64,000 bases of DNA from Pseudomonadota bacterium (GTDB taxonomy: Bacteria; Desulfobacterota; Desulfobacteria; Desulfobacterales; JAHIVH01), in NCBI GenBank assembly GCA_018816735.1, contig JAHIVH010000129.1:138628-202627 (forward strand). The letters run 5' to 3'. The notes beneath the pieces are model-generated. The model made no database searches. It was not told the DNA's origin and worked only from the letters and a program-made list of their open reading frames with translations. The position numbers and the translations under genes were made by a program. Shown here piece after piece: positions 4,415-37,937 of this stretch; position 1 is the first letter of the stretch, and the number at the start of each line of letters is the position of its first letter.

Positions 4415-4428
4415 ACTGACCGGTCAGT
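4415..4428. promoter_or_regulatory. Perfect 14-bp palindrome ACTGACCGGTCAGT, a candidate operator
   Basis: Read directly from the sequence. It lies 5 nt upstream of a -35-like TTGACT. A 12/14 match with similar flanks occurs at 14715-14728. Confidence 0.5.
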
Positions 4429-4433
4429 TTTTA

Positions 4434-4462
4434 TTGACTTTGTTTTTTTTCCTTTTTATAGT
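4434..4462 (+). promoter_or_regulatory. Sigma-70-type promoter candidate (TTGACT-17 nt-TATAGT)
   Basis: -35 at 4434-4439 and -10 at 4457-4462, with a counted 17-nt spacer. It sits about 55 nt upstream of the 4515 start codon. Confidence 0.5.
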
Positions 4463-4514
4463 TACGGTCATAAATGCCAAATCATGCAGACTGCATTGAC
4501 ACGGAGGAAACAAT

Positions 4515-5987
4515 ATGAACACAACCGGATATGCCATCAACACATACCCTGATACGAAAAAGATATATGACCAATTACATGCGCTGATTCGTCAGCCCAT
4601 GCGCACGTTGAAACCGTCTGCCATGGAACGGTATCTGTCGTATTTCAAGGCGCGTTGCCCGAAATCGAAACAAATGATCGATTCGGCCAGAAACGTCATT
4701 CCCGGAGGGGTTCAACACAATCTGGCATTTAACTATCCCCACCCGCTTGCCTTTGAACAAGCAAAAGGCGCTTATCTTTACGATATTGACGGCAATCGCT
4801 ACATTGATTTTCTGCAGGCCGGAGGCCCTACGGTTCTGGGGAGCAATCCTGACGCGGTGAGGGAAAAAATAATTCATCTTCTTGAGACCTGCGGCCCTGT
4901 GACCGGGCTTTTTCATGAGTATGAACTGAAACTGGCGAAATTCATTTGTGACCATTTTTCTTCAGTGGACCGGTTTCGAATGTTGGGGAGCGGCACGGAA
5001 AGCTGCATGGCTGCCATTCGTGTGGCCAGGCTTGCCACAGGTAAAAAATATATCATCAAAATGGGAGGGGCATACCACGGCTGGAGTGATCAGCTTTCTT
5101 ACGGCATGAGGATTCCGGGCACTGGATCTCTGGAATCCCATGGCATTCCAAAATCGTGTTTCAGATATACCCAGGAGGTCTATCCGAATGATATTGAGGC
5201 CCTCGAGAAAAAACTTTCCATGAACCGGTATCGTGGCGGAACGGCAGCGGTTATTCTGGAACCGGTGGGACCGGAGAGCGGCACCAGGCCGGTTGATTAC
5301 AATTACAATCAAAAGGCCCGTGAACTCTGTGACCGGTTTGGCGCGTTGCTGATTTTTGATGAAGTGGTCACGGCCTTCAGAGTAGGCATTGACGGTGCGC
5401 AAGGGTATTTCAAGGTGAAACCGGATTTGACGGTTTTCGGAAAAGTAGTGGCAGGCGGGTATCCTTCAGCAGGCGGACTTGGCGGTAAGGAGGAATACAT
5501 GGCCTTCCTTGCAGCAGGCGTTGGCGGGAAGAAATCCAAACAGGCCCACGTGGGCGGGACACTTGCCGCAAACCCGTTAAGTGCTGCAGCCGGATATTAT
5601 ACCTTGGTGGAAATAGAGAAAACAAACGCCTGCGAGAAGGCAGGGCGGGCCGGAGATCGTCTGACAAAAGGTCTTCAGGCAATTATGGGAAAATACGGGC
5701 TTCCGTTTGTGGTTTACAATCAGGGGTCAATTTGCCATCTGGAGACAGTGGGCACCATGCTGTTTGATATCAATCTGTTCAAACCCTGGCAGATTCCATC
5801 CCGTCTCAAGGAGATTCACGCCAGGAAGGATGTGATGACCCATATGGGTGCGGCTTACATGGCAGAAGGTATTGTCACCCTGGCCGGTAGCAGGCTGTAT
5901 ACCTCTTCTGCAGATACCGACGATATTATCGATGATGCGCTTTCGCGATTTGACCGGATTTTTTCTGAGATTGAGGGAGTGAATTGA
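4515..5987 (+). CDS. Class III PLP aminotransferase / glutamate-1-semialdehyde aminomutase-like enzyme with a ~60-aa N-terminal extension
   Basis: GSAM-like motifs: GSGTESCMAAIRVAR, LIFDEVVTAFR, and the PLP-lysine context DLTVFGKVVAGGYP. At 490 aa it is longer than typical HemL, so it is not called hemL. Confidence 0.85.
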   Translation: MNTTGYAINTYPDTKKIYDQLHALIRQPMRTLKPSAMERYLSYFKARCPKSKQMIDSARNVIPGGVQHNLAFNYPHPLAFEQAKGAYLYDIDGNRYIDFLQAGGPTVLGSNPDAVREKIIHLLETCGPVTGLFHEYELKLAKFICDHFSSVDRFRMLGSGTESCMAAIRVARLATGKKYIIKMGGAYHGWSDQLSYGMRIPGTGSLESHGIPKSCFRYTQEVYPNDIEALEKKLSMNRYRGGTAAVILEPVGPESGTRPVDYNYNQKARELCDRFGALLIFDEVVTAFRVGIDGAQGYFKVKPDLTVFGKVVAGGYPSAGGLGGKEEYMAFLAAGVGGKKSKQAHVGGTLAANPLSAAAGYYTLVEIEKTNACEKAGRAGDRLTKGLQAIMGKYGLPFVVYNQGSICHLETVGTMLFDINLFKPWQIPSRLKEIHARKDVMTHMGAAYMAEGIVTLAGSRLYTSSADTDDIIDDALSRFDRIFSEIEGVN

Positions 5988-6658
5988 TGGACCCGGTTGA
6001 AAACATCCGCATAACGGGTCTTTCAAACGCCCAAACAATCGTCTGGGACGCGGGGCTGCGACTTCATCGGGAAGGACTTGTGGCAAGAACCTGGGGGAAT
6101 ATCAGTTTCCGGGTGAATGAAAATCTGTTTGTCATCACCCCAAGCGGTATCGCCTATGAGCACTTGACACCCGAGAGAATTGTCCCTGTAAACTTAAGGG
6201 ATTTAACTTATCATGGCAAACTGAAACCCTCTTCGGAAAAAGGAATGCATGCGGCTATTTATCGGGATCGGCCTGAGATTAAGGCGATTATCCACACCCA
6301 TCAGCAGGCTGCTTCAAGTGTGTCAGCAGCCCGTATGGATATTGAAAATATACAGGGAGAAGATAGAATGATTTTGGGGCCGGTTGTAAAAACAACACCG
6401 TATGCACTTCCCGGAACAAAAAAGCTTGCCAAATCAGCGTTCATGGCCATCCGGGGAAGCAATGCCACCCTTCTTTCAAACCATGGGGCGATATGTATCG
6501 GAAAGAATATGGCGGAGGCGTTTCACGTGTGCATATCTCTTGAATCACTTTGCGAGCGTTTTGTGGCGGAAAAGGTCATGGCAGCCGCAGGCGTAAAAGA
6601 ATACGCGCCTGGCATGATCCATCGATTTTATCTTGAACACCATGCCCGAGGCCGATAA
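5987..6658 (+). CDS. Class II (metal-dependent) aldolase/adducin-family protein, fuculose-phosphate-aldolase-like
   Basis: Catalytic/zinc motifs are present: KPSSEKGMH, IIHTHQQAAS (HxH) and LLSNHGAICIG. The ATG at 5987 overlaps the upstream TGA (TGATG). Confidence 0.85.
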   Translation: MDPVENIRITGLSNAQTIVWDAGLRLHREGLVARTWGNISFRVNENLFVITPSGIAYEHLTPERIVPVNLRDLTYHGKLKPSSEKGMHAAIYRDRPEIKAIIHTHQQAASSVSAARMDIENIQGEDRMILGPVVKTTPYALPGTKKLAKSAFMAIRGSNATLLSNHGAICIGKNMAEAFHVCISLESLCERFVAEKVMAAAGVKEYAPGMIHRFYLEHHARGR

Positions 6659-7294
6659 ATGGAAAAAAGAGATATCAGAAAGGAAGTCGCCGACAATTAT
6701 GAAGTGCTTCTTTCAGCAGGTGTCATCAGAAAAGATGGCGGAAGTTTCAGCATGCAGTTTGAAGGGGAGCTGTATTTCCCGGATGGACAGACCGGCCCCT
6801 CTGATTTATATGGCAAAAGAATTGACGAAAAACTACCTGAACAGACACCAGCCTGGTGCAGGCTTCATCAATACTTGTACAGGCAACGGAAAGATATCCG
6901 TGTCCTTCTCACTTCACGGCTGTCTTACACCATGACTGCTGCCTGCGCCGGGCATGAAGTGCCGCCGCTTCTCGATGATTTCGCTCAGCTTGTGGGGGTG
7001 ACCGCCCGGGTTGTTTATGTGGAACCAACGGACCCGGTGTTTTTTAGAAAGATCCTGAAAGGGATGCGGAGACGAAATGCCGTATTGATTCCGCAGATGG
7101 GGGGGCTTTGTGCAGCCGCTTCCTTTGAAGATACGCTTGCCGTGTCCCAGGTGTTGGAAAAGGGATGCCGGGCCTATATCGACACGGCATTTTTGGGTGG
7201 CGGTTTTCGGATCAGCTGGATCGAATCCTGGCTCATGCGGCTTGTGTTCAAGTTTAAATATTCAAATTTGAAAAATAAGTTATCAGGCAGTTAA
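6659..7294 (+). CDS. Class II aldolase-like paralog lacking the metal-binding histidines (probable non-catalytic partner)
   Basis: It aligns by eye to the preceding aldolase. The HxH position reads LLTSRLSY, and the NHG position reads IPQMGGLC. Its start directly abuts the upstream stop. Confidence 0.6.
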   Translation: MEKRDIRKEVADNYEVLLSAGVIRKDGGSFSMQFEGELYFPDGQTGPSDLYGKRIDEKLPEQTPAWCRLHQYLYRQRKDIRVLLTSRLSYTMTAACAGHEVPPLLDDFAQLVGVTARVVYVEPTDPVFFRKILKGMRRRNAVLIPQMGGLCAAASFEDTLAVSQVLEKGCRAYIDTAFLGGGFRISWIESWLMRLVFKFKYSNLKNKLSGS

Positions 7295-8384: not shown

Positions 8385-9473
8385 CTACGAAATAAAGACA
8401 ATTTGTTTTTCCGGTATTGCGAGTTTAATTTTTTTCCCCTGAAACAGATTATATTTCTTTTCAAGATATTTTGGCATCTTTATTTCAAAATCATATTCCA
8501 TAGGGCTGCCCGCTAATTTGGCATATATCATGAAATTCTCCGGAAGACGCAAAATGGACACAATCTCAACGTGGAAAAGATTATTTTTTAATGATCCCTT
8601 TAAAGGGAACCCATCCTTGATGATTTTAATATCTTGCGGCTTGATACATATTTTTACCGTTTGCCCTGATGGTATTTTCTTTGGGATCACCATACTGAAA
8701 TGGCCAAAATCAAGATTCATTGTTTCGTTGCAGGCCCCCACGATTCCAGAAAAAATATTGCGATAGGTCAAATACCGGGCGACTCCTTCACTCGCGGGCT
8801 GTTCAAATATAATTTGTTTTAAATCACTTTGATGCAGTTTGCCATTTAACAGAACCGATATTCTATCACCCATGCTGTATGCTTCTTCAAGATTGTGGGT
8901 AATATGAAAAGCAGTTATGCCTACCTCATTGATGATTGTTTTTAATTCGATCCAAAGGGTTCGTTTGGCTCCTTCGTCAATGGAGGAAAAGGGTTCATCG
9001 AGCAGTACGATATCCGGTTGTATGGCTAAAGCCCTGGCAAGAGCCACTTTCTGCTTTTCTCCACCTGACAGGTGGTGAACATTCCTCTTTCGGAGTTTTT
9101 GGATATCAAGGATGGAACAAAGTCTATCAACAATACGGTCCGGGTCTTTGACCTTATTATTTTTTCCGTGAAAACCGAACCGGATGTTCCCCTCTACATT
9201 TAAATGGGGGAAAAGGGAATAATTCTGTGGAACATAGCCCATACACCTACGTTCGGGAACTTCCTTTGTAATATCCTTATCCTTTAAGAAAATCGTTCCG
9301 GTGTTGACACTGTGAAAACCCAAGATACATTTCATTAAGGATGTTTTGCCACTCCCCGTGGGGCCAAGCAGGATATGGTACTCCCCCTTTTCACAAGAGA
9401 GGTTAATGTTTTGCAATGAAAATTTGCCCAACGACAGATTCAACGACTCAATTTTTAAATAGGAGGTTTTCAC
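8385..9473 (-). CDS. ABC transporter ATP-binding protein, molybdate/tungstate type, with a C-terminal TOBE-like extension
   Basis: Walker A GPTGSGKTS, signature LSGGEKQKVALARAL, Walker B IVLLDEPFSSID. A ~120-aa C-terminal extension is present. It overlaps the permease gene by 4 nt. Confidence 0.85.
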   Translation of the reverse strand: MKTSYLKIESLNLSLGKFSLQNINLSCEKGEYHILLGPTGSGKTSLMKCILGFHSVNTGTIFLKDKDITKEVPERRCMGYVPQNYSLFPHLNVEGNIRFGFHGKNNKVKDPDRIVDRLCSILDIQKLRKRNVHHLSGGEKQKVALARALAIQPDIVLLDEPFSSIDEGAKRTLWIELKTIINEVGITAFHITHNLEEAYSMGDRISVLLNGKLHQSDLKQIIFEQPASEGVARYLTYRNIFSGIVGACNETMNLDFGHFSMVIPKKIPSGQTVKICIKPQDIKIIKDGFPLKGSLKNNLFHVEIVSILRLPENFMIYAKLAGSPMEYDFEIKMPKYLEKKYNLFQGKKIKLAIPEKQIVFIS

Positions 9474-10246
9474 AATTTCCCGCCTTGAACAGATCTGACG
9501 AAAAACAGAATGGCCAGAGACATGACAACAAGGATGGTGATATAAATTAATGCACCCGTGATGTCGGCTGACTCAAAGCTTAAATAAATCGCAGTCGGTA
9601 TAGTTTCTGTCTTCATGGTAGTAGCCCCTGCCAGCGTTACTGTTGCGCCGAACTCACCGATAGCTCTTCCCCAGACCAATAAAAAAGATCCCATAAGACC
9701 CCTGCCAGCCATGGGTATCACGACCTTTTGAAAGGTCTGTATTTTATTGTAACCTAAAGTCCGGGCCAGGTTTTCATATTCGGGGTCGATCCCTTCAAAC
9801 GTGGTTCTCAGTAATCTTATGGACAGGCCGACGATAACAAAAAATTGTGCAACAACAATCCCTTTTACCTCAAAGACAATGGCACCGAAATGGTGTTCAA
9901 TCTGTTTTCCAACAGCGGTGTTGAAAAAAATGAGCAACATCGCGCCAAGGGCTATGGGCGAAAGCACAATGGGCAGGTCTAACAGCGTATCAATAAAAGC
10001 CTTGCCGAAAAAAGACTGCCGTGAAAACAAATACGCAACCGGGACAGAAGAAAGAATTGCAACAACAGATGAAATCGTGGCGGTTAACAGTGAAAGTTTG
10101 ATTGCAAACCAAATACGATCAAAATGAGGGAAGGACAATGCATTTGTGCCAGCGAGTTCAATAATCATGCTACCAAAAAGGCTGATAAACACGAATATGA
10201 GCAACACAGTCGCACCCCACATCAAGGTGTCAAAGGTGCGATTCAT
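9470..10246 (-). CDS. ABC transporter permease (ModB/WtpB-like)
   Basis: Six-TM permease with an EAA-type loop (YENLARTLGYNKIQTFQKVVIPMAGRGL). It abuts the binding-protein gene. Confidence 0.85.
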   Translation of the reverse strand: MNRTFDTLMWGATVLLIFVFISLFGSMIIELAGTNALSFPHFDRIWFAIKLSLLTATISSVVAILSSVPVAYLFSRQSFFGKAFIDTLLDLPIVLSPIALGAMLLIFFNTAVGKQIEHHFGAIVFEVKGIVVAQFFVIVGLSIRLLRTTFEGIDPEYENLARTLGYNKIQTFQKVVIPMAGRGLMGSFLLVWGRAIGEFGATVTLAGATTMKTETIPTAIYLSFESADITGALIYITILVVMSLAILFFVRSVQGGKL

Positions 10247-11113
10247 TTATTTTTTCCATAAATCTTTGATAATTTCGAAATATTTGTCGGGAAGGGTATA
10301 TAGACCACCGACAGCAGCCTCTGGCGCAAATTTTTTTGCATCTTCCAGAATACTCAAGTACCCGTATTTTTTATAAATGGATTTTCCTATCGGTGAAAGG
10401 GTATATTCAATGAAGGCCTTTGAAAGATTGACGTCCTTGGTATACACGGGAATTGATATCGGGATATATGAAATTCTAGGTATTTGTTTCGGATTGATAG
10501 CTACAAATTCCATGCGCTCCGGATTCCAGAAATGAAACACGCGCCAGCCGAGAATGGCATCAACCTTATTCAACGCTGCCAAATTCGCTGTTTTTGAACA
10601 GGAGCCCCCGAAGGTAACCACATTTTTTAAAACCGGTTCCAAGAGACTATTTTTTTCCAGTAGTTCTATACCGTATAAACCTAGGCACACCGTTTCCGGA
10701 TTCCCGATCCCCAAGCGAAGGCCTGGCCGGGTCAGATCCTCCAATGTATGGATATTTGCGGGATTACCCGCTGGCGTGATAATGGCTGGAACAAGGTAGG
10801 CAACGATTTGATCACTGTTTTCAATGATCAGTTTTTTCTTTTCGGCAATGATAATATAATCCGGTGACCCCGGCAAATAGATCTCACCCTTTTTCGATAA
10901 CTCGATTTGAGAAAGCAAGGTGCCCGATCCGCCGAAAATCATATTGACTTCGACATTCTTGTCTTCCTTGAATTTTGCGGCGATCTCCTCCATGGCCGGT
11001 TTATTGGCAGAGCCGCAAAATACTGTTATGGATTGCATCTCGGCAAACCCATTTTCCCACCCAATGCATACAATTAATAAGACCATTAATAAAACGATTC
11101 TGAACCTGTTCAT
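10247..11113 (-). CDS. Periplasmic molybdate/tungstate-binding protein (ModA/WtpA-like)
   Basis: Signal peptide, then ModA-like motifs (ITVFCGSANKPAMEEI, IFGGSGTLLSQIE, LPGSPDY). First gene of the ABC operon. Confidence 0.8.
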   Translation of the reverse strand: MNRFRIVLLMVLLIVCIGWENGFAEMQSITVFCGSANKPAMEEIAAKFKEDKNVEVNMIFGGSGTLLSQIELSKKGEIYLPGSPDYIIIAEKKKLIIENSDQIVAYLVPAIITPAGNPANIHTLEDLTRPGLRLGIGNPETVCLGLYGIELLEKNSLLEPVLKNVVTFGGSCSKTANLAALNKVDAILGWRVFHFWNPERMEFVAINPKQIPRISYIPISIPVYTKDVNLSKAFIEYTLSPIGKSIYKKYGYLSILEDAKKFAPEAAVGGLYTLPDKYFEIIKDLWKK

Positions 11114-11150
11114 TCTTTTTCTTTTTCCTTTTCATTCTATGAAGTTTTTT

Positions 11151-11202
11151 TGCACTCAATAATCACCCATCCTTAAAACACTTCCCGAGTTTCTGCACTC
11201 AA
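11151..11202 (-). promoter_or_regulatory. Two copies of the 9-mer TGCACTCAA (plus-strand reading), 43 bp apart, in the promoter region of the oxyanion ABC operon
   Basis: Copies at 11151-11159 and 11194-11202, both followed by xAA and preceded by a T-run. They lie between the regulator gene end (11252) and the binding-protein start (11113). Confidence 0.3.
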
Positions 11203-11251
11203 CAAATCGATTCAGCCCCAACCGCTATTGCCCGTTTTATTTTACCGTAAG

Positions 11252-12286
11252 CTACACCGTTTCTTCATCACCCGTTGTCCGGGTATCTATTCCTTTAAAA
11301 CGGGTTAAGTTTTTTCTATAGCTCACGCTGCGAATGACCTTACGCAAGCCCACGATGCGAGGATCTTTTTCCATGTATTTGGGGTAGCATAAATCAAATG
11401 TTTCCTGACTGACCTGAAGAAATTCAAGACCGGCCTGTTCGGCGGCCAGACGGTGGCAGACACCCGCGTCCACCCATCCCTGTCGCACGGCCATGGTGAC
11501 CTCCCAGTGATTTTGGGCTACATTCTTGATGGCCCTGTCGCTTGGCAGAACCTTGTCCTGGCACCTACGGGCTCCGGAACCTTGCTTGCGGCCAATCCAA
11601 CGAATGTGAGGAGAAACGGTTTTCCTAATCTCCGTCAAGCCTTCTCCGGGGCGTACGGCTATGCCTTCGTGCCAAACCGCACCCCTTAACAAACCAAATC
11701 CCTTGCCCAGAAGGTCGCAAACCACGGATGCATTACCCCCAGGTTCATCGATTTCCCGGAGGTGCGTGCCTGCCACATGCACCACTCCTTGTTTGAGCAA
11801 AGAAAGCGCTTCATTACTGGAGCGGTGAAAGGACAACACGCGCATACCAGTCTTTGCGCCTATCATGGCCGATAGGAGCCCCACCGCCGGATCGCAAGAG
11901 GCCATGATCAGTGTCATACTTGAGGCGTCTGACGAAAGCGGTTTTCGTGATCGGCCATCGAACCAACCGTCAGGCGGCAGAATGTTGTAAGGCAAAGGTT
12001 CTACCGGAAAAGCCAGAACTTTTTGGTCGAAAGAGGCTTCCCAGTATGCCGGAAAATCTTGGGTGGGATGCCATGCCCAAGCGATGGTGGCACCTTCCCC
12101 TTCTTCGGAGAACAATTCTTCAACCGTACAATCAAGTGCACGTGCTAATGCCAGCGCCGCATGCACTGATGGAACCAGCGCGCCGTTTTCGATGGCGGCA
12201 ATGCGGGAACGTGAAACATTTGAGCGACGGGCCAACTCTGCCTGTGTCCAATTTTTCTTATTGCGGAAAATACGTAAACGGGACAT
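11252..12286 (-). CDS. XRE-family HTH regulator fused to a periplasmic-binding-protein-like (PBP-like) sensor domain
   Basis: N-terminal HTH (WTQAELARRSNVSRSRIAAIENG) followed by a ~270-aa PBP-fold-like domain. Located immediately upstream of the molybdate/tungstate ABC operon. Confidence 0.7.
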   Translation of the reverse strand: MSRLRIFRNKKNWTQAELARRSNVSRSRIAAIENGALVPSVHAALALARALDCTVEELFSEEGEGATIAWAWHPTQDFPAYWEASFDQKVLAFPVEPLPYNILPPDGWFDGRSRKPLSSDASSMTLIMASCDPAVGLLSAMIGAKTGMRVLSFHRSSNEALSLLKQGVVHVAGTHLREIDEPGGNASVVCDLLGKGFGLLRGAVWHEGIAVRPGEGLTEIRKTVSPHIRWIGRKQGSGARRCQDKVLPSDRAIKNVAQNHWEVTMAVRQGWVDAGVCHRLAAEQAGLEFLQVSQETFDLCYPKYMEKDPRIVGLRKVIRSVSYRKNLTRFKGIDTRTTGDEETV

Positions 12287-13048: not shown

Positions 13049-14641
13049 TTACCTTTTGTTTAACGTGCGAAAGAGTGTTTTGTTTTTTTGATAAAGGGAT
13101 TTGAAAACATCAAAGTTACGATCGTAAACTGCCCGGTATTCCGGCTGGGGATGAAAACTGCTTCCCATGGGGATCAATTCTTTTGCACCTTTGAAGGTCG
13201 GGAGTATTTTTAACCCCACCCCGCAGACAATGGCGGCGCCGACCGTTCCGATATCCTGGGGATATTTAACCGTTCGGATTTTCCTGCCTGTCACATCTGC
13301 CATGATCTGGCACCAGACATCGGATTTGGCCCCACCACCTACGAAACAGATGCTTTTCTGAAATGGAATTTTCTTTTCCATGGCTTCCAGTATCCATCTT
13401 TTGTGATAGGAGACGCCTTCAAGCACTGCCCGGATCATCTGGCGTTTACCGGTGTTCATGCCGATGTTGAAGAATATGCCCCGTGCGTTTGCATCTTCTC
13501 TGGGCGCACGATTGCCATGGAGCCAGGGTGTAAAGATGAGATTGCCTGCGCCAGGCTCGGTTTCTGCCACCACCTGGTTCAGGAGTTTGTAAAGATCTTC
13601 CATCTGTTCTTCAGGGTCTTTTTTTCCCTGAAGATAGATGCCTATTTCGTCTAAAGCCAGATGGTCCCGGACCCATTTCAGGCACGCGCCGGATGTTTCC
13701 TGTTCACCCACATAATTGTATCTTCCGGGCACAGCACCCAGAATGGACGCCATGAAATTTTCAATATCGACCCATCGTTTGTTCACATTGGCAGCCACCC
13801 ACCCTGATGTTCCCACGTAAATATGGGTATCAAAAAGGTCCAGGCAACCCGATCCGATTGCGGCCATGGTCACATCGCCGCCCCCGCCAAATACCGGAAT
13901 ACCTGGAGAAAGACCTGTTTCAGATGCGGCATTTGCGCTGAGGGTGCCCACCACATCTGTGGCATGGACGACTTTTGGCAGATGATCCATATTCACACCG
14001 AATGTGTGGCAGAGACCGGGGTGCCATTTTTCCTTTCCGGGCCGGGTGTCGTAAATGAACGTGACATGGGCGGAATCACGGGTCATGCCGATTTTTCCGG
14101 TACACCTCAAAATCAGGTAATCTTTGACATCCAGCCATTTGTGGACTTTTTTGAAGATGGCGGGCTCGTTCTCGCGAACCCAATGGTATTTCCAGAGCGG
14201 ATCCTTGGGGGTGGCGGCAACACCTCCGGTTATTCGCAAGGCATTCAATGCTTTTATCAAATTCATGCCGCTGATTCTCAACAATCCATGGCAGAGATGG
14301 TCTTCCATCTGGCGTGTGGCCCGCCCGTCCATGTATATCATGGGATTCCTCAATGCATTTCCCTGACGGTCCACGAGTATTGACCCCTGCATCTGGCAGC
14401 AGAACGCCAGACCTTTGATTGCATCCGGTGCAAGGGATGCTTTTGCGAGCACTTCCCTGCTTGTGGTGCAAACCGCCTGCCACCAGTCATCTGCTTTTTG
14501 TTCAACGCCGCCGTCATCCGTAACATGAAGGGGATATTCGGCAAGTGCTGCACCCAAAAGATCCAGCGTTTTTCCGATACGGTAAAGGCAGGTTTTGCAC
14601 CCGGTGGTTCCCAGGTCATAGGTCAGTACGAACGTATCCAT
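13049..14641 (-). CDS. FGGY-family carbohydrate kinase (xylulokinase/ketose-kinase-like)
   Basis: FGGY N-terminal motif YDLGTTGCKTCLY and C-terminal motif FVGGGAKSDVWCQIMADVTG. I prefer the start at ATG 14641 (RBS AAGAGG 7 nt upstream), because a strong promoter-like element lies inside the longer 14707 ORF. Confidence 0.85.
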   Translation of the reverse strand: MDTFVLTYDLGTTGCKTCLYRIGKTLDLLGAALAEYPLHVTDDGGVEQKADDWWQAVCTTSREVLAKASLAPDAIKGLAFCCQMQGSILVDRQGNALRNPMIYMDGRATRQMEDHLCHGLLRISGMNLIKALNALRITGGVAATPKDPLWKYHWVRENEPAIFKKVHKWLDVKDYLILRCTGKIGMTRDSAHVTFIYDTRPGKEKWHPGLCHTFGVNMDHLPKVVHATDVVGTLSANAASETGLSPGIPVFGGGGDVTMAAIGSGCLDLFDTHIYVGTSGWVAANVNKRWVDIENFMASILGAVPGRYNYVGEQETSGACLKWVRDHLALDEIGIYLQGKKDPEEQMEDLYKLLNQVVAETEPGAGNLIFTPWLHGNRAPREDANARGIFFNIGMNTGKRQMIRAVLEGVSYHKRWILEAMEKKIPFQKSICFVGGGAKSDVWCQIMADVTGRKIRTVKYPQDIGTVGAAIVCGVGLKILPTFKGAKELIPMGSSFHPQPEYRAVYDRNFDVFKSLYQKNKTLFRTLNKR

Positions 14642-14677
14642 AAAGAGCCTCTTGGATGTTTGATTTTTTCTTGACCT

Positions 14678-14707
14678 ACTATAGGGGAGGCGGTATGGTT
14701 CTGTCAA
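14678..14707 (-). promoter_or_regulatory. Sigma-70-type promoter candidate (TTGACA-18 nt-TATAGT on the minus strand)
   Basis: Reverse complement of 14702-14707 is TTGACA, and of 14678-14683 is TATAGT, with a counted 18-nt spacer. It sits about 35 nt upstream of ATG 14641. Confidence 0.5.
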
Positions 14708-14714
14708 CTTTAAA

Positions 14715-14728
14715 ACCGACTGGTCAGT
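14715..14728. promoter_or_regulatory. Second copy (12/14) of the ACTGACCGGTCAGT palindrome
   Basis: Minus-strand reading is tttgaACTGACCAGTCGGTttt, followed after 7 nt by the -35 TTGACA. This is the same architecture as the 4415-4428 site. Confidence 0.45.
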
Positions 14729-14746
14729 TCAAATATACCGTGATGC

Positions 14747-16195
14747 CTACACAATAAAATTCTTCTCGGAAAATGTCTCCGGATCAGTATAGGTGATTTT
14801 TGTGAGATACGTATGGAGGTCAATATCTGCCTTGGCTGTATATTTTTTAAAGGTATAGGTCAGGACCACCTTGTTTTCCGGAGAAGGCTGGATGGCAAAG
14901 TCTCCTTTGAAGGCCGGATAAGTGTTCCTGAATTCCATCAACCGGATCAGTCTTTGCACAACCGGTTTTTTTACGGCGTCATCAATTTCATCCAGGGTAA
15001 AATTGTGCCGGTTGATATCTCTTCCGTTTCGGGTTTTCTCTACCAGATCGATATCGTTTTCCCCGGCCAGAAGACCGACATAGTAAACCTGGGGCACGCC
15101 AGGTGCAAAAAACTGGATGGTCCTTGCGGCAATATAGGAATTATCGTTACATTCCAGAGCCGAGTAGTAGGTGCAGTTCACCTGATAAATATCAAGGTTC
15201 TGATAGGCTTCGCTGGAATAAACCGGTTTGACGTTTGAGCCTTTTTCATAAAGCCCGTTTATGGTTTTTTCAATGTCTGACGCTGTCATGAGATCTTCAA
15301 CATCCACCACCCCTATGCCGTCATGGGTATCTAAAGTGGTCACCTGTTTTCTGGGGCATATCTGGAGCCAGTTTAAAAGAGCGGTATTGGTATGGTGATA
15401 CAATGTGTGAAGCACCAGCATGGGAAGGGCGAAGTCATAGACCCAGTACCCTTTTTCCGAAAGTTTTTTCTGATAGGTGTAGTGGCCGTGGACTTCCGGC
15501 AGAATCCGTGAGTCAAAAGGCGTCACAAAACCAGCTAACATTTCAAGAAGTTTCCAGACGTCAGGCTCGAGAAAAAAACAGTTGGTGCCCAGCTTGATGG
15601 TGGTATAGGCAAATGCATCCATCCGGATAAATTCCGGTTTTTTTCTTGAAAGGAAAATCAGAAAATCCCTGAACAGTTCCCGTGTCTTCGGGGATGTAAC
15701 ATCAAGGTCGATCTGTTCAAAGTCAAACGTGCACCAGAGGGTTTCAAGAGATCCGTCAGGACGTTGCACATCCTGAAAGGGCGGCCTAGGTTTCCGGGTG
15801 TATACTTTTTCAAGATCCTTTTTATCTATTTTTCCATCCGGGCTCAGTTTGTTGAAGCTCATAAATATATCCGCAAACTCGGAATCCTTTCCGTTTTCCA
15901 GATAATCGACGAAGTATTTGGATTGTCTTGAAATGTGGTTCACCATGAAATCGATCATAATATCATAGTCTTCCTGTATCATTTCAATGTCACGCCAGGT
16001 GCCGAATGCGGGGTCCACCTGATAATAGGTCATGGGGGCAAACCCCCTGTCTGCAGATGACGGGTAAAAGGGGAGAATATGGATGCCGCCCACTGCTTTC
16101 CTGAAATAGCGCCTCAATACGTAATGGAGTTCCTGAAGATTTTTACCCAGGCTATCCGGGTAGGTAATGACCTGAATTCTGTTTTTAAATGGCAT
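14747..16195 (-). CDS. GH13_18 sucrose-phosphorylase-family glycoside phosphorylase (donor specificity not determinable from sequence)
   Basis: Family motifs with the catalytic triad contexts intact: GGIHILPFYPSSADRGF, FIRMDAFAY (nucleophile Asp), LPEVHGH (acid/base Glu), LDTHDGIGV. Confidence 0.8.
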   Translation of the reverse strand: MPFKNRIQVITYPDSLGKNLQELHYVLRRYFRKAVGGIHILPFYPSSADRGFAPMTYYQVDPAFGTWRDIEMIQEDYDIMIDFMVNHISRQSKYFVDYLENGKDSEFADIFMSFNKLSPDGKIDKKDLEKVYTRKPRPPFQDVQRPDGSLETLWCTFDFEQIDLDVTSPKTRELFRDFLIFLSRKKPEFIRMDAFAYTTIKLGTNCFFLEPDVWKLLEMLAGFVTPFDSRILPEVHGHYTYQKKLSEKGYWVYDFALPMLVLHTLYHHTNTALLNWLQICPRKQVTTLDTHDGIGVVDVEDLMTASDIEKTINGLYEKGSNVKPVYSSEAYQNLDIYQVNCTYYSALECNDNSYIAARTIQFFAPGVPQVYYVGLLAGENDIDLVEKTRNGRDINRHNFTLDEIDDAVKKPVVQRLIRLMEFRNTYPAFKGDFAIQPSPENKVVLTYTFKKYTAKADIDLHTYLTKITYTDPETFSEKNFIV

Positions 16196-16216
16196 ATACG
16201 TTCCTGTGTGCTTAGG

Positions 16217-18424
16217 TTAGTCATTTATTTTTTTTGCTTTTTCGATGAACTGATAGTGGGAAATCCCTTCAAGAATGCCTCCTGCGCAGGGTTCATCTGC
16301 AAAATAGATATTTCTTGCACCTTTAAGGGGCTCAAGCTCATGACTGTAGTTTCCCACCACTACCCCCATGGGTTCACCTCTCAGCATTTCATCGTCGTTC
16401 CCGGAATCGCCGCAGACCAGAAAATTGCCGATGGGAATTTCCCATTTGTAGCTCAAATACCGGATGGCCTTTCCTTTGGACGCTCTATGGGGGAGAATGT
16501 CCAAAAACTGGTCATGGGAATATATCAGCGTATATCTGCAGCTGTTTTTGCTCAGAAGGTCATGGATAGTTGCCACACGGTCTTTGGAAGGGGGCATGTA
16601 ATAGCTTATCTTGTATTTTTTTTGGGTGTCATCTTCCTGATATTCGAGGAAATCAAGCTGATCAAGCAGTTCCTTTATTTTCTCCCTTTCCCATTTTTTT
16701 GAAATGTGCGATTCCCATCCTCTTGAGAACTGGAGTTGTTCCCCATAGTGGAGTTCCGAGCCCACCGATGAAATGATGAGATCCGGCAAGTCGATGTTGT
16801 GTTTTTTGAGGATCGCCACAGCAGATTCCACGGTTCTTCCGGTGGCCACGCCGAATCCGATTGTCTCTTTGTTTTCTTTCAGCAACCGGATCAGCTTTTT
16901 CAGTTTTGTATTGTCTTCTCCGATCAGTGTATTGTCGATATCTGTGACCAGGAAAGAATTGAGTTTGATGATGCGTCTGCCGATCATGTCAGACGGTTTG
17001 GCTGGTGTCAGATCAGATGCAGTGGATTTTTTCACAATCGGTTTCAGATCGTTGAGGTATTTTTTCACATGACTCTCCCAGGTGTATTTTTTGCGTATGT
17101 TCATCACACCATTTTTGGAGTAGGTCTTCCACAGATCGGCATCAGCGATGATTTTTTTTATGGCATGGCTGATTTGCCGGGTATCTGTGGGATCGACCAG
17201 AATGCCGCACTGACAGTTTTTAATAATGTCTTTGGGACCGCCATCCCGGGTGGCCACAACCGGAATGCCTGTGGCTGCGGCTTCGATAAGGGTCAGGCCA
17301 AATGGTTCCGTGAGCGCGACATTGACAAATACGCCTTTTTTTTCACCGGTAATGCGATACAGCTCAGGCACTTCATACTGAAAATCATGCTTCTTGGGAA
17401 TCGCCATTTTTCCGTAAAGGTCGTATTTGTCCATCAGAAGCAGCATGCGGGTCAAGACATCCTTTTCATTGTCGTCCTTCCGGGAGATGTCTTTCCTTAT
17501 GCCGGCAAAAATCGCCAGATTGGCCATGGACTGGAGTTCCTTGTCCTCACCATAGGCGCTCACCAGACCGCTGATGTTCTTTTTTTTATCCGGCCGGCAC
17601 AGGGTGAGGATAACCGGTTTATCCGGATTCATGAAAAAACGGTTCAGCTCTTCCAAAAGGGATGCATGGGCGTATAACTGATGCTCATTTAGTTCCGGTT
17701 CTGAGATTTTGCCGTAGTAATAGGGGTAGAACTTTTCAAGATCAAGGCCCGGAGGGATGACCTGGAAACGGGGAAGCCCGTTTAGGTGATAGGTTCCATA
17801 CTGCTGTTTGATTTCCTGGTTGGTGCTTGTGACAACCAGATCTGCTTTTTTAAGAATATCTTCTTCTGTTTGTATTCTGTAATTGATTTTGTATTTTTTT
17901 TCGATCTCGGTTTCATCAAGACCGTCATTTAACAGTTTCTGTTTTTTGGGCCTTCCCAGAGAGTGGCCCGTAAATATAAAGGGCGTGCCGAAAAATTCCG
18001 CCAGCTGACCTGCCACATATCCGCCATCCGCGTAATGCCCGTGAACGATATCCGGGATACACGCTTCGGTTTTTATGAATTTAATGGTCTTGTCGATGTA
18101 TTCGTCCAGGTGGGGCCACAGACGTTCTTTGCGGATGTATTTTTTACCCCCGCACTGGATTCTTATAATCCTGAATTTGTCATTGACGGTTTCAATTTCT
18201 TTTGCATAATCGGTAGAAACGGTTTTATCGGAAATCAGCCGTGTAAACAGATCCACGCGTTTGACTGTTTTTCCCCGGCTCAAGGCCCTTCCCAGTTCGA
18301 CCACATAATGGATCTGGCCGCCTGTGTCTGCATTTTTCCCCAGTTCCATGTTCTCTGAACGTAACAGGCCATGAATACTGAACATTTGAATATAGAGCGG
18401 TCTAGTCATCCGGTTTTTCTCCAT
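16217..18424 (-). CDS. Sucrose-phosphate synthase (GT4) fused to an SPP-type HAD phosphatase domain
   Basis: N-terminal half has SPS-like GT4 motifs (GGQIHYVVELGRAL, EPFGLTLIEAAATGIPVVAT). C-terminal half has all HAD motifs (TDIDNTL, VATGRT, GDSGNDDEML). I chose an internal start (ATG 18424 or 18409), since the longer ORF would overlap the upstream kinase gene by over 200 nt. Confidence 0.85.
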   Translation of the reverse strand: MEKNRMTRPLYIQMFSIHGLLRSENMELGKNADTGGQIHYVVELGRALSRGKTVKRVDLFTRLISDKTVSTDYAKEIETVNDKFRIIRIQCGGKKYIRKERLWPHLDEYIDKTIKFIKTEACIPDIVHGHYADGGYVAGQLAEFFGTPFIFTGHSLGRPKKQKLLNDGLDETEIEKKYKINYRIQTEEDILKKADLVVTSTNQEIKQQYGTYHLNGLPRFQVIPPGLDLEKFYPYYYGKISEPELNEHQLYAHASLLEELNRFFMNPDKPVILTLCRPDKKKNISGLVSAYGEDKELQSMANLAIFAGIRKDISRKDDNEKDVLTRMLLLMDKYDLYGKMAIPKKHDFQYEVPELYRITGEKKGVFVNVALTEPFGLTLIEAAATGIPVVATRDGGPKDIIKNCQCGILVDPTDTRQISHAIKKIIADADLWKTYSKNGVMNIRKKYTWESHVKKYLNDLKPIVKKSTASDLTPAKPSDMIGRRIIKLNSFLVTDIDNTLIGEDNTKLKKLIRLLKENKETIGFGVATGRTVESAVAILKKHNIDLPDLIISSVGSELHYGEQLQFSRGWESHISKKWEREKIKELLDQLDFLEYQEDDTQKKYKISYYMPPSKDRVATIHDLLSKNSCRYTLIYSHDQFLDILPHRASKGKAIRYLSYKWEIPIGNFLVCGDSGNDDEMLRGEPMGVVVGNYSHELEPLKGARNIYFADEPCAGGILEGISHYQFIEKAKKIND

Positions 18425-19316
18425 TGCCAAAAAGCGGCCGGAACACCTGATAGAATGAATCCTCCTCGGGGACGGCACCTCTGATTTTACATATTTCTTT
18501 GGCAAAATCCGTGGCCACGGACATGATTTTATCCGGCTTCCATTTTTTAAGGTATCCAACGGCCAGAACTGCGGAAAAACCATCTCCCGCACCCACGGTA
18601 TCCGCGATTTCAAAATTGGAGTCAAAACACAAGACTGTGTAGTGCTTTCCGTTTTTTATAATTTCACTGCCATCTGCACCCTTGGTCACAGCCACCATTT
18701 CAATATCATATGTTTTCATCATGTTTTTGATGAATGCGTCGTTCTTCCCGGTGAATCCGTTCATTTCCTTGATGATATTGAGTTCATCAAGATTCAGTTT
18801 CAATATATCCGCATGCGTGAGGCAGGAAGAAACAAGTGTTTTGTCAAAGCATCCTTTTCTCAGATTGATATCGCACATGCATTTGGTCTGTTTGTCTTTT
18901 TTCCTGATAAAGTCTGAGAAAAGAGAAGATGCTTTTTTCGTACGTTGAAAAACAGACCCAAAATAGACGAGATCGACCGGCACCTTTCCGGCCAGTAAAA
19001 GTGTTTTGGAGAGTTTGATGTGATCAAAGGCGGCATCCGGGAGAATTTCAAAATCCGGTACACCTTTTTCATCAAGGTTGACAATTACGCTGCCGGTTTT
19101 ATAATTCGGATCGATCTGGACGTCCGAAGGATAAAATCCTTCCTGCTTTAGATAGGATATGATGTCTTCGCCATCCGGGTCGAATCCCACTCTTGAAATA
19201 AACCGGACAGGGAATCCCAGCTTTTTCAAATGAAATGCAAAATTAAAAGGAGCCCCGCCCATGCGTTTGTGAGTGGGAAACATGTCGAAAAGGATTTCGC
19301 CGATGGAAACAATCAT
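18402..19316 (-). CDS. PfkB-family sugar kinase (fructokinase-like)
   Basis: Motifs GGAPFNFAFHLKKLG and DTVGAGDGFSAVLAVG. Its stop overlaps the SPS start region. Confidence 0.8.
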   Translation of the reverse strand: MIVSIGEILFDMFPTHKRMGGAPFNFAFHLKKLGFPVRFISRVGFDPDGEDIISYLKQEGFYPSDVQIDPNYKTGSVIVNLDEKGVPDFEILPDAAFDHIKLSKTLLLAGKVPVDLVYFGSVFQRTKKASSLFSDFIRKKDKQTKCMCDINLRKGCFDKTLVSSCLTHADILKLNLDELNIIKEMNGFTGKNDAFIKNMMKTYDIEMVAVTKGADGSEIIKNGKHYTVLCFDSNFEIADTVGAGDGFSAVLAVGYLKKWKPDKIMSVATDFAKEICKIRGAVPEEDSFYQVFRPLFGNGEKPDD

Positions 19317-29576: not shown

Positions 29577-29981
29577 TCAGTTTTCTTTCTCCGCCTGCAT
29601 GGAAACTCTTTCGATACCTGCCAGTTTGATCTGGTCCAGAACGGAAAAAAGTTGTTGATAGGGAAGACGGTTATCTGCAAAGAGAAGAACGCCCGGTTTT
29701 TCCTGACCTGTCATTTTCTGCTTCAGATAGCTTCCCAGTTCTTCAACCGGAATGGGGGTTTTGTCGACAGATACGGCTCCTGCCGAATCAATGGAAATCG
29801 AGAGAAGAAGGTTCTTATCCACTTCTGCTGTGGAAGATACCGGAAGATTAATCGGTAATCCTCTGTGAACAGCCATGGAAAGCATGGCGTAGATAAAAAA
29901 AACAAGAAGCAGAAAGACAATATCAATCAAAGGCAGCATTTCAATTCTTGCTTTTCGGTCAATATCAAGGCGGAGTTTCAC
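29577..29981 (-). CDS. exbD: ExbD/TolR biopolymer transport protein
   Basis: IEMLPLIDIVFLLLVFF, with the conserved TM aspartate. 134 aa. Confidence 0.85.
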   Translation of the reverse strand: MKLRLDIDRKARIEMLPLIDIVFLLLVFFIYAMLSMAVHRGLPINLPVSSTAEVDKNLLLSISIDSAGAVSVDKTPIPVEELGSYLKQKMTGQEKPGVLLFADNRLPYQQLFSVLDQIKLAGIERVSMQAEKEN

Positions 29982-36852: not shown

Positions 36853-36890
36853 AAAAAAAAATCCCCGAACCAAAACTCATGGCCGGGGAT
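36853..36890 (-). terminator. Intrinsic terminator-like hairpin forming the riboswitch expression platform
   Basis: Minus strand reads TCCCCGGCC-atgagttt-GGTTCGGGGA followed by T9, directly upstream of the RBS of the first operon gene. Confidence 0.5.
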
Positions 36891-36894
36891 AGAT

Positions 36895-37085
36895 GTGTCC
36901 CATTGTCGTGCCCCTGTCCACGGAGGTTTCTATTATCAGGCAGGTTTTCTGACTCCCGGATCATCCTACTTGCTGCGCCTTCCCGTCAGAATTGTTTCCT
37001 GACAGTGGCCAGATGGCAGCTTTCGTCCCCGATCACAGCGGCGGGCCCGTCCCGGTTTTTCACCGGGTTCCCTTTTTAATCCGTT
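36895..37085 (-). promoter_or_regulatory. Cobalamin (AdoCbl) riboswitch
   Basis: The minus strand carries the consensus blocks AAAAGGGAACCCGGTGAAAAACCGGGAC, GCCGCTGT, GCCACTG and GGGAAGGC, plus the B12 box GAGTCAGAAAACCTGCC (36939-36955). Confidence 0.85.
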
Positions 37086-37937
37086 TTTTTCCGGATCAAG
37101 CTCAGTGCGAGCACCTGAATATTATCCGTATCATTAAATGAAAATGGAATTACAAGTCAAGGAAAATCTCAGAAGTCAGCAGTTCACATTAAACGCGGTG
37201 ATGTGTGATTCAGATGACAAATAAATCGTATGGATTATCCTACACAGTATTAAGCAGGTTCCTCTGCCGGGAAATATCACTTTTATAAAAATTCGGATAT
37301 ACCAGAGGCCTTGGACTTAATATCTGGGCTCACAATAATGCCATGTTGGCATTGAGGCATATATCGGATTTTTTTAGCGAATGTATGAAATACCCTTCGG
37401 CATTTCAGGCACTTGAAAACCGGTCGCTGGATGATTTGGGACAAGGGTGCATGGAAGAACAGGTGTATGGATAATCCTTCATTTATTTGCCATATTGCCA
37501 GATTGATGCAGATTATTAAAGATAAATAGTTAATAAAAACAATATAATAAAAGTAATATATCGTATGTGGCACAGGCTTTGATAACAGAGTCTGTAAATG
37601 TGGACAATCTATGCAGAAGATTGAAGGCATGAGGGCAGTCACGCACAGGAAACGAATCGAAAAAAAGGGATAAAAGGAATGAAAGCAGGTTTTTTGCACA
37701 ATCAGGCAAGGTGTATAAAAATAGTTACAGGTAAGATGGCCAATTTGCTAAAAACCATACTTCCTGCCTGGATTTCAAAATCATTTTATCTCATTAAAAA
37801 AATGACTGTGGTGAATCGTTGTTATGTAAATGTGGGCCGGTATCTGCACAAGAGCAGGATAAACAGTCATTTAACCAGGATACACGCGATTCATTATCAG
37901 AACAGATGACGTGATCTGTTTTTATTCATACTGCCTT

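Follow-up and report, generated by a model that had tools for sequence, protein, structure and literature searches.

Genes of the two operons

The window, by which we mean the whole 64-kb stretch of DNA analysed here, contains two operons that are placed on opposite strands and headed by copies of the same palindrome (Table 1). The plus-strand operon (4515-7294) encodes a class III aminotransferase followed by two proteins of the class II aldolase family, as compared to a single aldolase gene in the clusters outside the window lineage. The minus-strand operon (14641-12406) encodes an FGGY-family kinase followed by a regulator of the TetR/AcrR family, and a terminator scan found no terminator-like site between these two genes.

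Table 1. Genes, operator sites and promoter elements of the two operons, with positions counted from the first nucleotide of the window.
Feature	Position	Strand	Remarks
Operator site 1, perfect palindrome	4415-4428	.	reads ACTGACCGGTCAGT on the plus strand; 5 nt 5' of the -35 box of the aminotransferase operon
Promoter TTGACT-17 nt-TATAGT	4434-4462	+	TTGACT at 4434-4439, TATAGT at 4457-4462; followed by GGTCA at 4466-4470
Class III aminotransferase, 490 aa	4515-5987	+	resembles glutamate-1-semialdehyde aminomutase
Class II aldolase/adducin-family enzyme, 224 aa	5984-6658	+	
Second, divergent class II aldolase-family protein, 211 aa	6659-7294	+	weak match (E 3e-9) that covers the C-terminal part only
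TetR/AcrR-family regulator, 198 aa	12406-13002	-	MBU0996096.1; starts 46 nt past the kinase stop codon
FGGY-family kinase, 530 aa	13049-14641	-	xylulokinase-like; under every equivalog cut-off
Ribosome-binding site AAGAGG	14648-14653	-	6 nt ahead of ATG 14641
GGTCAA element	14671-14676	-	1 nt past the -10 box, about -5 to +1; resembles the right operator half GGTCAGT
-10 hexamer TATAGT	14678-14683	-	18-nt spacer; relatives keep TATAGT or TATGAT
-35 hexamer TTGACA	14702-14707	-	invariant in the orthologous promoters
Operator site 2	14715-14728	.	reads ACTGACCAGTCGGT on the minus strand; 7 nt 5' of the -35 box of the kinase-TetR promoter

The regulator contains the TetR_N helix-turn-helix domain at residues 10-55 (PF00440, E 7.6e-15) and a C-terminal ligand-binding and dimerisation domain (PF17932, TetR_C_24, E 9.8e-9) that scores 35.9 bits against a cut-off of 26.4. 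It scores 75.1 bits with the Bacillus FadR equivalog NF053878 and 48.9 bits with the RutR equivalog TIGR03613, which is below their respective cut-offs of 200 and 368 bits. Its relatives among the solved structures are remote, the best being FadR-like (E 2e-13), and the weak matches include the PfmR-type structures 3vpr and 3vuq. The kinase carries both FGGY domains, yet it cannot be named a xylulokinase, with 284 bits against the XylB equivalog TIGR01312 and a cut-off of 380. None of the NCBIfam equivalogs was reached by the aminotransferase, the kinase or the aldolases, and the matches to solved structures are generic (GSA aminomutase, D-phenylglycine aminotransferase and xylulokinase). Because no enzyme reaches an NCBIfam equivalog cut-off, no name can be given to the pathway, and a function for it was found neither in the curated family models nor in the searchable literature. 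Likewise, nothing relevant on the enzyme combination or the exact motif was found in the literature searched. Phytosphingosine-like or amino-alditol substrates were considered by chemical logic alone, and we make no claim for them.

Directly upstream of the kinase promoter is a gene for sucrose phosphorylase (14747-16195, minus strand; TIGR03852, 650 bits), preceded by a sucrose-phosphate synthase/phosphatase fusion gene (16217-18625, minus strand), and this sucrose gene neighbourhood (14747-18625) is absent from the relatives. Since the stop codon of the sucrose phosphorylase gene is located 18 nt from the operator and no terminator was predicted, transcription may read through into the kinase-TetR operon. 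The TetR gene is followed directly by the genes for an ABC transporter of the tungstate/molybdate type, with its ATPase, permease and binding protein, and for a regulator with XRE-HTH and PBP_like domains (8385-12286, minus strand), which are unrelated to the operator regulon. Elsewhere in the window, a full-length cobalamin riboswitch (RF00174, 108 bits; 36922-37133, minus strand) is placed ahead of a minus-strand cluster that ends near position 36873.

The first-pass annotation had moved the start of the kinase gene from a mechanical open reading frame of 552 aa to the ATG at 14641. This start codon is correct, but it corrects only the mechanically longest frame, as the 530-aa form was already deposited as MBU0996097.1, and an exact look-up finds no record of 552 aa. 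The longer frame was said to begin with an ATG at 14707, whereas the codon at this position is a TTG and constitutes the first three bases of the -35 hexamer. The proteins of 18 orthologues begin 0-8 residues from Met-14641 (MDTFVLTYDLGTTG), and the FGGY_N domain begins at residue 5 of the kinase. Conservation does not extend to the 22 additional residues, and most relatives have in-frame stops in the matching frame. The would-be extension is instead filled by the conserved promoter, in line with the earlier suggestion that the promoter is located inside the 5' end of the 552-aa frame, and the proposed ribosome-binding site AAGAGG is also present.

Operator sites and promoters in the window

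On the plus strand, the region of site 1 reads tttgcACTGACCGGTCAGTttt, also given as tttgcACTGACCGGTCAGTttttaTTGACT(17 nt)TATAGTtacggtca, with the core followed by 5 nt, the TTGACT hexamer, 17 nt, the TATAGT hexamer and the ATG of the aminotransferase gene. The region of site 2 on the minus strand is tttgaACTGACCAGTCGGTttt, also given as tttgaACTGACCAGTCGGTtttaaagTTGACAgaaccataccgcctccccTATAGTaggtcaag...ccaagaggctctttATG, where the core is followed by the 7 nt tttaaag, TTGACA, 18 nt and TATAGT. The core of site 2 has a G at position 12 (GTCGGT), which makes this half imperfect, and the same G is present in three of the sites in the relatives. The first-pass annotation had described site 2 as a second copy of the operator together with its TTGACA and TATAGT hexamers, and both this description and the identity of 12 out of 14 core positions between the sites were confirmed. 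Its statement that the two promoters have the same geometry holds in that the operator is located 5' of the -35 box in both, but the gap between the operator and the -35 box is 5 nt in one and 7 nt in the other, and the spacers are 17 and 18 nt. The T-rich flanks that it mentioned are real, with TTTTGT on the promoter-distal side of most sites and TTT on the proximal side of many. Since these flanks are asymmetric, they are more likely to represent DNA-shape or UP-like features than a part of the palindrome.

A scan for promoters of the sigma-70 type gave scores of 11/12 for the kinase-TetR promoter and 10/12 for the aminotransferase promoter, each of which was top-ranked in its own region. 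The spacers of both (TTGACA-18-TATAGT and TTGACT-17-TATAGT) are within the range of 16-18 nt for this type, and both hexamers are kept in the relatives. With a start about 7 nt past the -10 box, as is usual for this type, transcription is predicted to begin at about position 14671 on the minus strand and at about position 4469 on the plus strand. Relative to these predicted starts, the operators span about -57 to -44 at site 2 and -54 to -41 at site 1.

To score the sites, we used a symmetrised weight matrix based on 22 sites from related genomes, from which the window was excluded to avoid circularity. The scores were 26.1 bits for site 1 and 21.6 bits for site 2, while the next-best site in the 64 kb reached 9.4 bits (position 29702, within an ExbD-like coding region). 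The mean number of hits with at least 21.6 bits was 0.005 in 200 shuffled windows, and the two sites were the only ones in the 64 kb with at most two mismatches to the pattern.

It is scarcely credible that two such 14-mers near promoters represent a chance resemblance. A simple count, which is our own calculation, does give an expectation of about 0.2 sites within two mismatches of a given 14-mer per 64 kb. However, the independently derived matrix placed both sites more than 12 bits above the rest of the window, the shuffled sequences hardly ever matched them, both sites are intergenic with matching promoter geometry, and the site is kept in 11 related loci and in about 16 metagenome contigs that encode orthologues of these genes. 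The earlier view that coincidence is unlikely is thus shared by the matrix gap, the shuffling and the conservation in the relatives, and in our assessment the conservation data already refute the chance reading. No further members of the regulon were found in the window, where the best leftover match to the matrix is the one inside the ExbD-like coding sequence, and a tblastn search of the window gave no homologues of the FadL-like, HAD, GMC and PLP genes that are preceded by the operator in the relatives.

Conservation of the gene cluster and the operator

A scan with the kinase as the query, including one genome per species, gave 80 loci with a total length of 1.39 Mb. The closest loci, with 62-77% identity, were from metagenome-assembled genomes of Desulfobacteraceae and other Desulfobacterales, followed by Spirochaetota and Leptospira. 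In seven of the Desulfobacterales loci (L005-L008, L011, L015 and L068), the aminotransferase gene is located directly 5' of the kinase gene in a single operon. The aldolase gene follows 3' of the kinase gene in L005-L008, L011 and L015, and the TetR gene is located further downstream on the same strand. The gene order in Spirochaetota is kinase, aminotransferase, MFS transporter and aldolase. Overall, the cluster was found in Desulfobacterales, Spirochaetota and Chloroflexia. Judging from these gene orders, the two operons of the window are parts of one conserved functional module, and a common control of both would therefore be expected. In L005, a low-complexity tandem repeat CCAGTATCCAGCAT... 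is placed between the aminotransferase and kinase genes (approximately 9780-9920).

A scan of the 80 loci for ACTGACCNGTCAGT with at most one mismatch identified 25 matches in 11 Desulfobacterales loci (L001-L008, L011, L015 and L068), as compared to only two in all the remaining sequence. Each of the matches that were checked sits in the promoter region of a gene for the aminotransferase, the kinase, TetR, the FadL-like porin or the HAD protein. Where a TTGACA follows the operator, the gap between the two is 6 nt in the relatives, as compared to 5 and 7 nt in the window. The first-pass annotation had proposed an alignment of orthologous upstream regions as a check, and in the alignment of six kinase upstream regions the invariant positions cluster in the operator (12 of its 14 positions), the -35 box, the -10 box and GTCAA, so that the operator and the promoter boxes stand out as conserved blocks in otherwise diverged sequence. 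The upstream neighbour of the kinase gene is the sucrose phosphorylase gene in the window and a divergent HAD gene in the relatives, which together with the diverged surroundings suggests that the operator-promoter module travels with the kinase gene. In L001-L003, there is an additional leader of about 65-110 nt between the kinase promoter and the ATG (L001 9870-10000, L002 955-1050, L003 9892-10000), which is absent from the window and L004. The 3' part of this leader is partly conserved (..GCG.AAA..A.C.G..AAAA.GG..), and a search of the window and L001-L003 gave no Rfam match for it.

The location of site 2 raises the question of an RNA hairpin, in which case positions 14715-14728 would be the intrinsic terminator of the sucrose phosphorylase gene that ends at 14747. 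The site is 18 nt past that stop codon and is followed by TTTT, and no other terminator was predicted there. However, the terminator scan did not flag site 2, the stems are only 5-7 bp long and the folding is no better than for shuffled sequences (z +0.57 and -1.53). Furthermore, site 1 and most sites in the relatives have no co-oriented upstream gene, and the conservation is in the sequence rather than compensatory, with central NN positions that need not pair (CC, AT, CA). Based on the folding, the type of conservation and the missing upstream genes, we rejected the hairpin and terminator reading, which is very improbable for these palindromes.

The promoters that contain the operator can be sorted into two types. 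Type A promoters, as in the window, L001-L004 and the metagenome contig L179, consist of the operator, 5-7 nt, TTGACA, 17-18 nt, and TATAGT or TATAAT. They are located 5' of the kinase gene and of the aminotransferase operon, as well as 5' of stand-alone TetR genes (L003 at 15620, L002 at 3041) and, according to the Pfam matches, of an operon for a FadL/TodX-like channel (L001 at 6301, L003 at 8136 and L004 at 9037). In L002, a mirror-image TTGACA from the same operator faces a gene for an HAD phosphatase. In these close relatives, the operon of the FadL/TodX-like outer-membrane channel (L001 1349-6287, L003 3337-8129, L004 6474-8923) also encodes a conserved protein that lacks a Pfam match and is 243 aa long, or 311 aa in L004. 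The operon extends in L001 and L003 to genes for a PLP enzyme of the Ala_racemase_N type and a GMC oxidoreductase. None of the proteins of this operon has a homologue in the window.

Type B promoters, as in the more distant relatives L005, L007, L008 and L015 and the metagenome contigs L085, L094, L139, L143, L152, L194 and L197, contain two full operators, one of which is located 6 nt 5' of TTGACA and the other past the -35 box, over or just beyond the expected -10 box. The centres of the two operators are 44-45 or 53 bp apart. L006 and L011 contain the downstream operator only. When the dual-operator promoters were aligned to the window promoter, no convincing -10 box was found in them.

In the kinase promoters of L001-L004, L179 and the window, six in all, the GTCAA past the -10 box does not vary, and GTCA is also present at this place in two TetR promoters and in the aminotransferase promoter of the window (4467-4470). 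The GGTCA(A) element is located 1-3 nt past the -10 box and 43-45 bp from the operator centre, which is the spacing of the second operator in the type B promoters, as compared by hand, and places it in register with the right half of that operator. This suggests that the element may be a residual half-site that aids a second dimer or a loop, for which the statistical support is weak given the common descent of the kinase and TetR promoters.

Association between the operator and the TetR gene

The motif was identified in all nine Desulfobacterales loci that contain an orthologue of the TetR gene (43-66% identity), and it was absent from the 14 orthologous kinase clusters in which no TetR gene is present. 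The latter include the clusters of Spirochaetota and Leptospira, which have a gene for an AraC-type regulator instead. The motif was also found without a TetR gene in view in L001 and L068, where the contigs end 1.9 kb past the kinase gene and inside the kinase gene, respectively. All TetR-bearing loci are from Desulfobacterales, so the co-occurrence is confounded by phylogeny. TetR genes that are not linked to the kinase gene are equipped with an operator-promoter of their own, as in the two stand-alone cases above. The motif thus has the distribution expected of a cognate operator, namely a palindrome of about 14-16 bp at the promoters of adjacent target genes and of the regulator's own transcription unit. 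Residues 28-53 of the helix-turn-helix (MDEIA..A.VAKGTLYYNY.SKS.LF) hardly vary among the orthologues, in contrast to the divergence in the rest of the protein. Taken together, the co-occurrence and the operator at the promoter of the TetR gene itself lend support to the first-pass proposal that one regulator controls both operons, with the co-transcribed TetR as the candidate.

In Spirochaetota and Leptospira, where both the TetR gene and the TetR motif are missing, five clusters (L016, L019, L020, L021 and L027) share a different conserved palindrome, TCTGATTAATCAGA, which is located about 150-200 nt 5' of the kinase gene. In L021, it is placed at the 3' end of a gene for an AraC-type protein with a 7TM sensor domain, and is followed by ATTGCGTAGACAA.

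We also scanned metagenomes for ACTGACNNGTCAGT-N6-TTGAC independently of the genes, which gave 120 contigs with a median length of 3.7 kb. A TetR-family protein was encoded by 56 of these, as identified with the TetR of the window as the query, and in 46 of the 56 the TetR gene starts 0-300 nt from the motif. Genes orthologous to those for the aminotransferase, the kinase, the aldolase, HAD or FadL are present on about 16 contigs. The other contigs represent TetR subfamilies that are more distant and have longer palindromes, for instance TAATAACTGACCAGTCAGTTATTA. The occurrence of the same core with these distant subfamilies suggests that it serves several subfamilies and represents a widespread type of TetR operator. 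An abundant separate group (L088, L091, L105, L129, L149, L160, L174, L182, L196 and others) has the extended palindrome TAATAACTGACC(A/G)GTCAGTTA(T/G)TTA at 6 nt ahead of TTGAC, and a distant TetR gene immediately downstream with about 25-47% identity, mostly in the helix-turn-helix. The 14-mer itself was not found in the searchable literature.

That the core is common to distant subfamilies means that its specificity may not be unique, and the view covers 64 kb of the genome only. A different regulator encoded elsewhere, either a TetR paralogue or a member of another family, might therefore bind the sites with the neighbouring TetR as a bystander. We consider this quite improbable, since no regulator gene other than the TetR orthologue is conserved beside the motif in the nine loci or accompanies the motif module, and the unlinked TetR genes carry the motif at their own promoters. 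Furthermore, the related loci contain no counterpart of the nearby XRE-PBP_like gene (11252-12286), which is located beside the tungstate/molybdate transporter.

A model for repression by TetR

The arrangement of the sites suggests that ACTGAC-NN-GTCAGT is probably the operator of the TetR protein, which would repress both promoters until a ligand releases the dimer. According to this model, a TetR homodimer would bind one copy of the operator 5-7 nt 5' of the -35 box at each of the two strong promoters of the sigma-70 type. One of these would drive the aminotransferase-aldolase-aldolase operon and the other the kinase-TetR operon, and the regulator would thereby control its own synthesis. The ligand-free dimer would hold both promoters down with a footprint from about -41 to -57, which would abut the -35 box and cover the place where an UP element or an alpha-CTD contact would be located. 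Help may come from the conserved GGTCA half-site at the start of transcription. The dimer would be released by a substrate or an intermediate of the route from the aminotransferase via the FGGY kinase to the class II aldolase. What the analysis shows is the conservation of the site, its co-occurrence with the TetR gene, the geometry of the promoters, the functional link between the two operons and the start codon of the kinase, and from these we infer the binding of TetR, the repression, the identity of the ligand and the reactions of the pathway.

Several features argue for repression. The relatives have a second full operator past the -35 box, or only that one. The near-consensus promoters of the window should not need an activator, and the variation of 5-7 nt between the operator and the -35 box fits occlusion rather than an activation that depends on the face of the helix. 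Repression with autoregulation is also favoured because the TetR gene is placed in the controlled transcription unit. However, other features speak against this model. The operator is located wholly 5' of the -35 box (about -41 to -57), a place that suits an activator better than a simple steric repressor, the gap to the -35 box is not the same in the two promoters, and the full downstream operator of the relatives is missing in the window. Against a single regulator is the use of the core by several TetR subfamilies, so that another paralogue in the genome could bind, and the TetR protein is without a close characterised relative.

Some members of the TetR family, such as those of the FasR and HapR/LuxR types, activate transcription. 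It is conceivable, though unlikely, that the same TetR protein does so here and recruits the RNA polymerase from about -48 to -51. In L001-L004, as in the two promoters of the window, the operator is centred 5' of the -35 box, and the protein shows a weak NCBIfam similarity to FasR (E 4e-14) that is far under the cut-off. On the other hand, the near-consensus promoters should fire unaided, and with the change of the spacing from 5 to 7 nt, the helical faces of the two window promoters differ by about 100 degrees. In addition, a second operator past the -35 box, which is the sole one in L006 and L011, is the arrangement of a repressor.

Comparison with characterised TetR systems

The predicted regulon represents a well-supported and conventional case of a TetR operator, with a textbook regulatory principle. 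As in TetR/tetO and QacR/IR1, the regulator is a small protein with an N-terminal helix-turn-helix (PF00440) and a C-terminal ligand-binding domain, the palindrome is about 14-15 bp, and the gene for the autoregulated protein is placed beside or inside the operon that it controls. Paired operators, another feature of those systems, are present in the relatives of the window system. However, the targets of TetR and QacR are efflux pumps rather than genes for metabolic enzymes, and their operators are placed over the -10 box or the transcription start, whereas the window has a single full operator 5' of the -35 box.

The Bacillus-type FadR (YsiA; 5gp9, 5gpa and 3whb) is the best match to the TetR protein among both the NCBIfam models and the solved structures, and it is a TetR-family metabolic repressor that is released by a metabolite of its pathway. 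It differs in that the score of 75 bits is far below the equivalog cut-off of 200 bits and that the window has no linked genes for fatty-acid degradation. The sequence of the Bacillus FadR operator also differs from that of the window operator. The operator of RutR in E. coli, TTGACCAnnTGGTCAA, contains a TGACC/GGTCA half-site as here. RutR is likewise a metabolic regulator of the TetR family, but the spacing of the half-sites is different, the regulon for pyrimidine utilisation is unrelated, and the NCBIfam score remains at 48.9 against 368 bits.

Similar half-sites are found in Thermus, where SbtR of Thermus thermophilus (TTHA0167) recognises the palindrome TGACYrnnyRGTCA and TTHB023/PfmR a palindrome of the CTGACCG.TCGGTCAG type (PMC4948773, PMC7022988). 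Both are TetR-family repressors with experimentally defined palindromes of TGAC(C)/(G)GTCA half-sites (PMC4948773, PMC7022988). As in the window, their sites overlap the promoters of metabolic genes. They differ in the inner TGAC-GTCA spacing, which is 6 nt as compared to 2 nt here, and in their targets, which belong to fatty-acid and phenylacetate metabolism, and the similarity between these proteins and the TetR of the window is remote (E about 1e-7).

Implications for the pathway

With respect to the function of the regulon, we offer a tentative and rather doubtful suggestion. The two operons, together with the genes for a FadL-like porin, a GMC oxidoreductase, a PLP enzyme and an HAD phosphatase that are preceded by the same operator in the relatives, might constitute an undescribed catabolic route. 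In this route, transamination of an amine-bearing polyol or lipid-like compound would yield a ketose-like product, the FGGY kinase would phosphorylate this product, and the class II aldolase would cleave the resulting phosphate ester. The TetR protein would then serve as the sensor of the substrate and repress from an unusual position 5' of the -35 box, possibly aided by the residual half-site at the transcription start.

In summary, the analysis defines a predicted regulon and an operator consensus, ACTGAC-NN-GTCAGT, for an uncharacterised TetR subfamily of the sulfate-reducing Desulfobacterales. The operator 5' of the -35 box in the window lineage is a point of modest interest. The physically separate aminotransferase-aldolase and kinase-TetR operons would thereby be joined in one uncharacterised pathway that is present in several phyla, and the TetR protein with its operator would provide a handle, in the form of a reporter or a ligand screen, toward the substrate of this widely distributed gene cluster.
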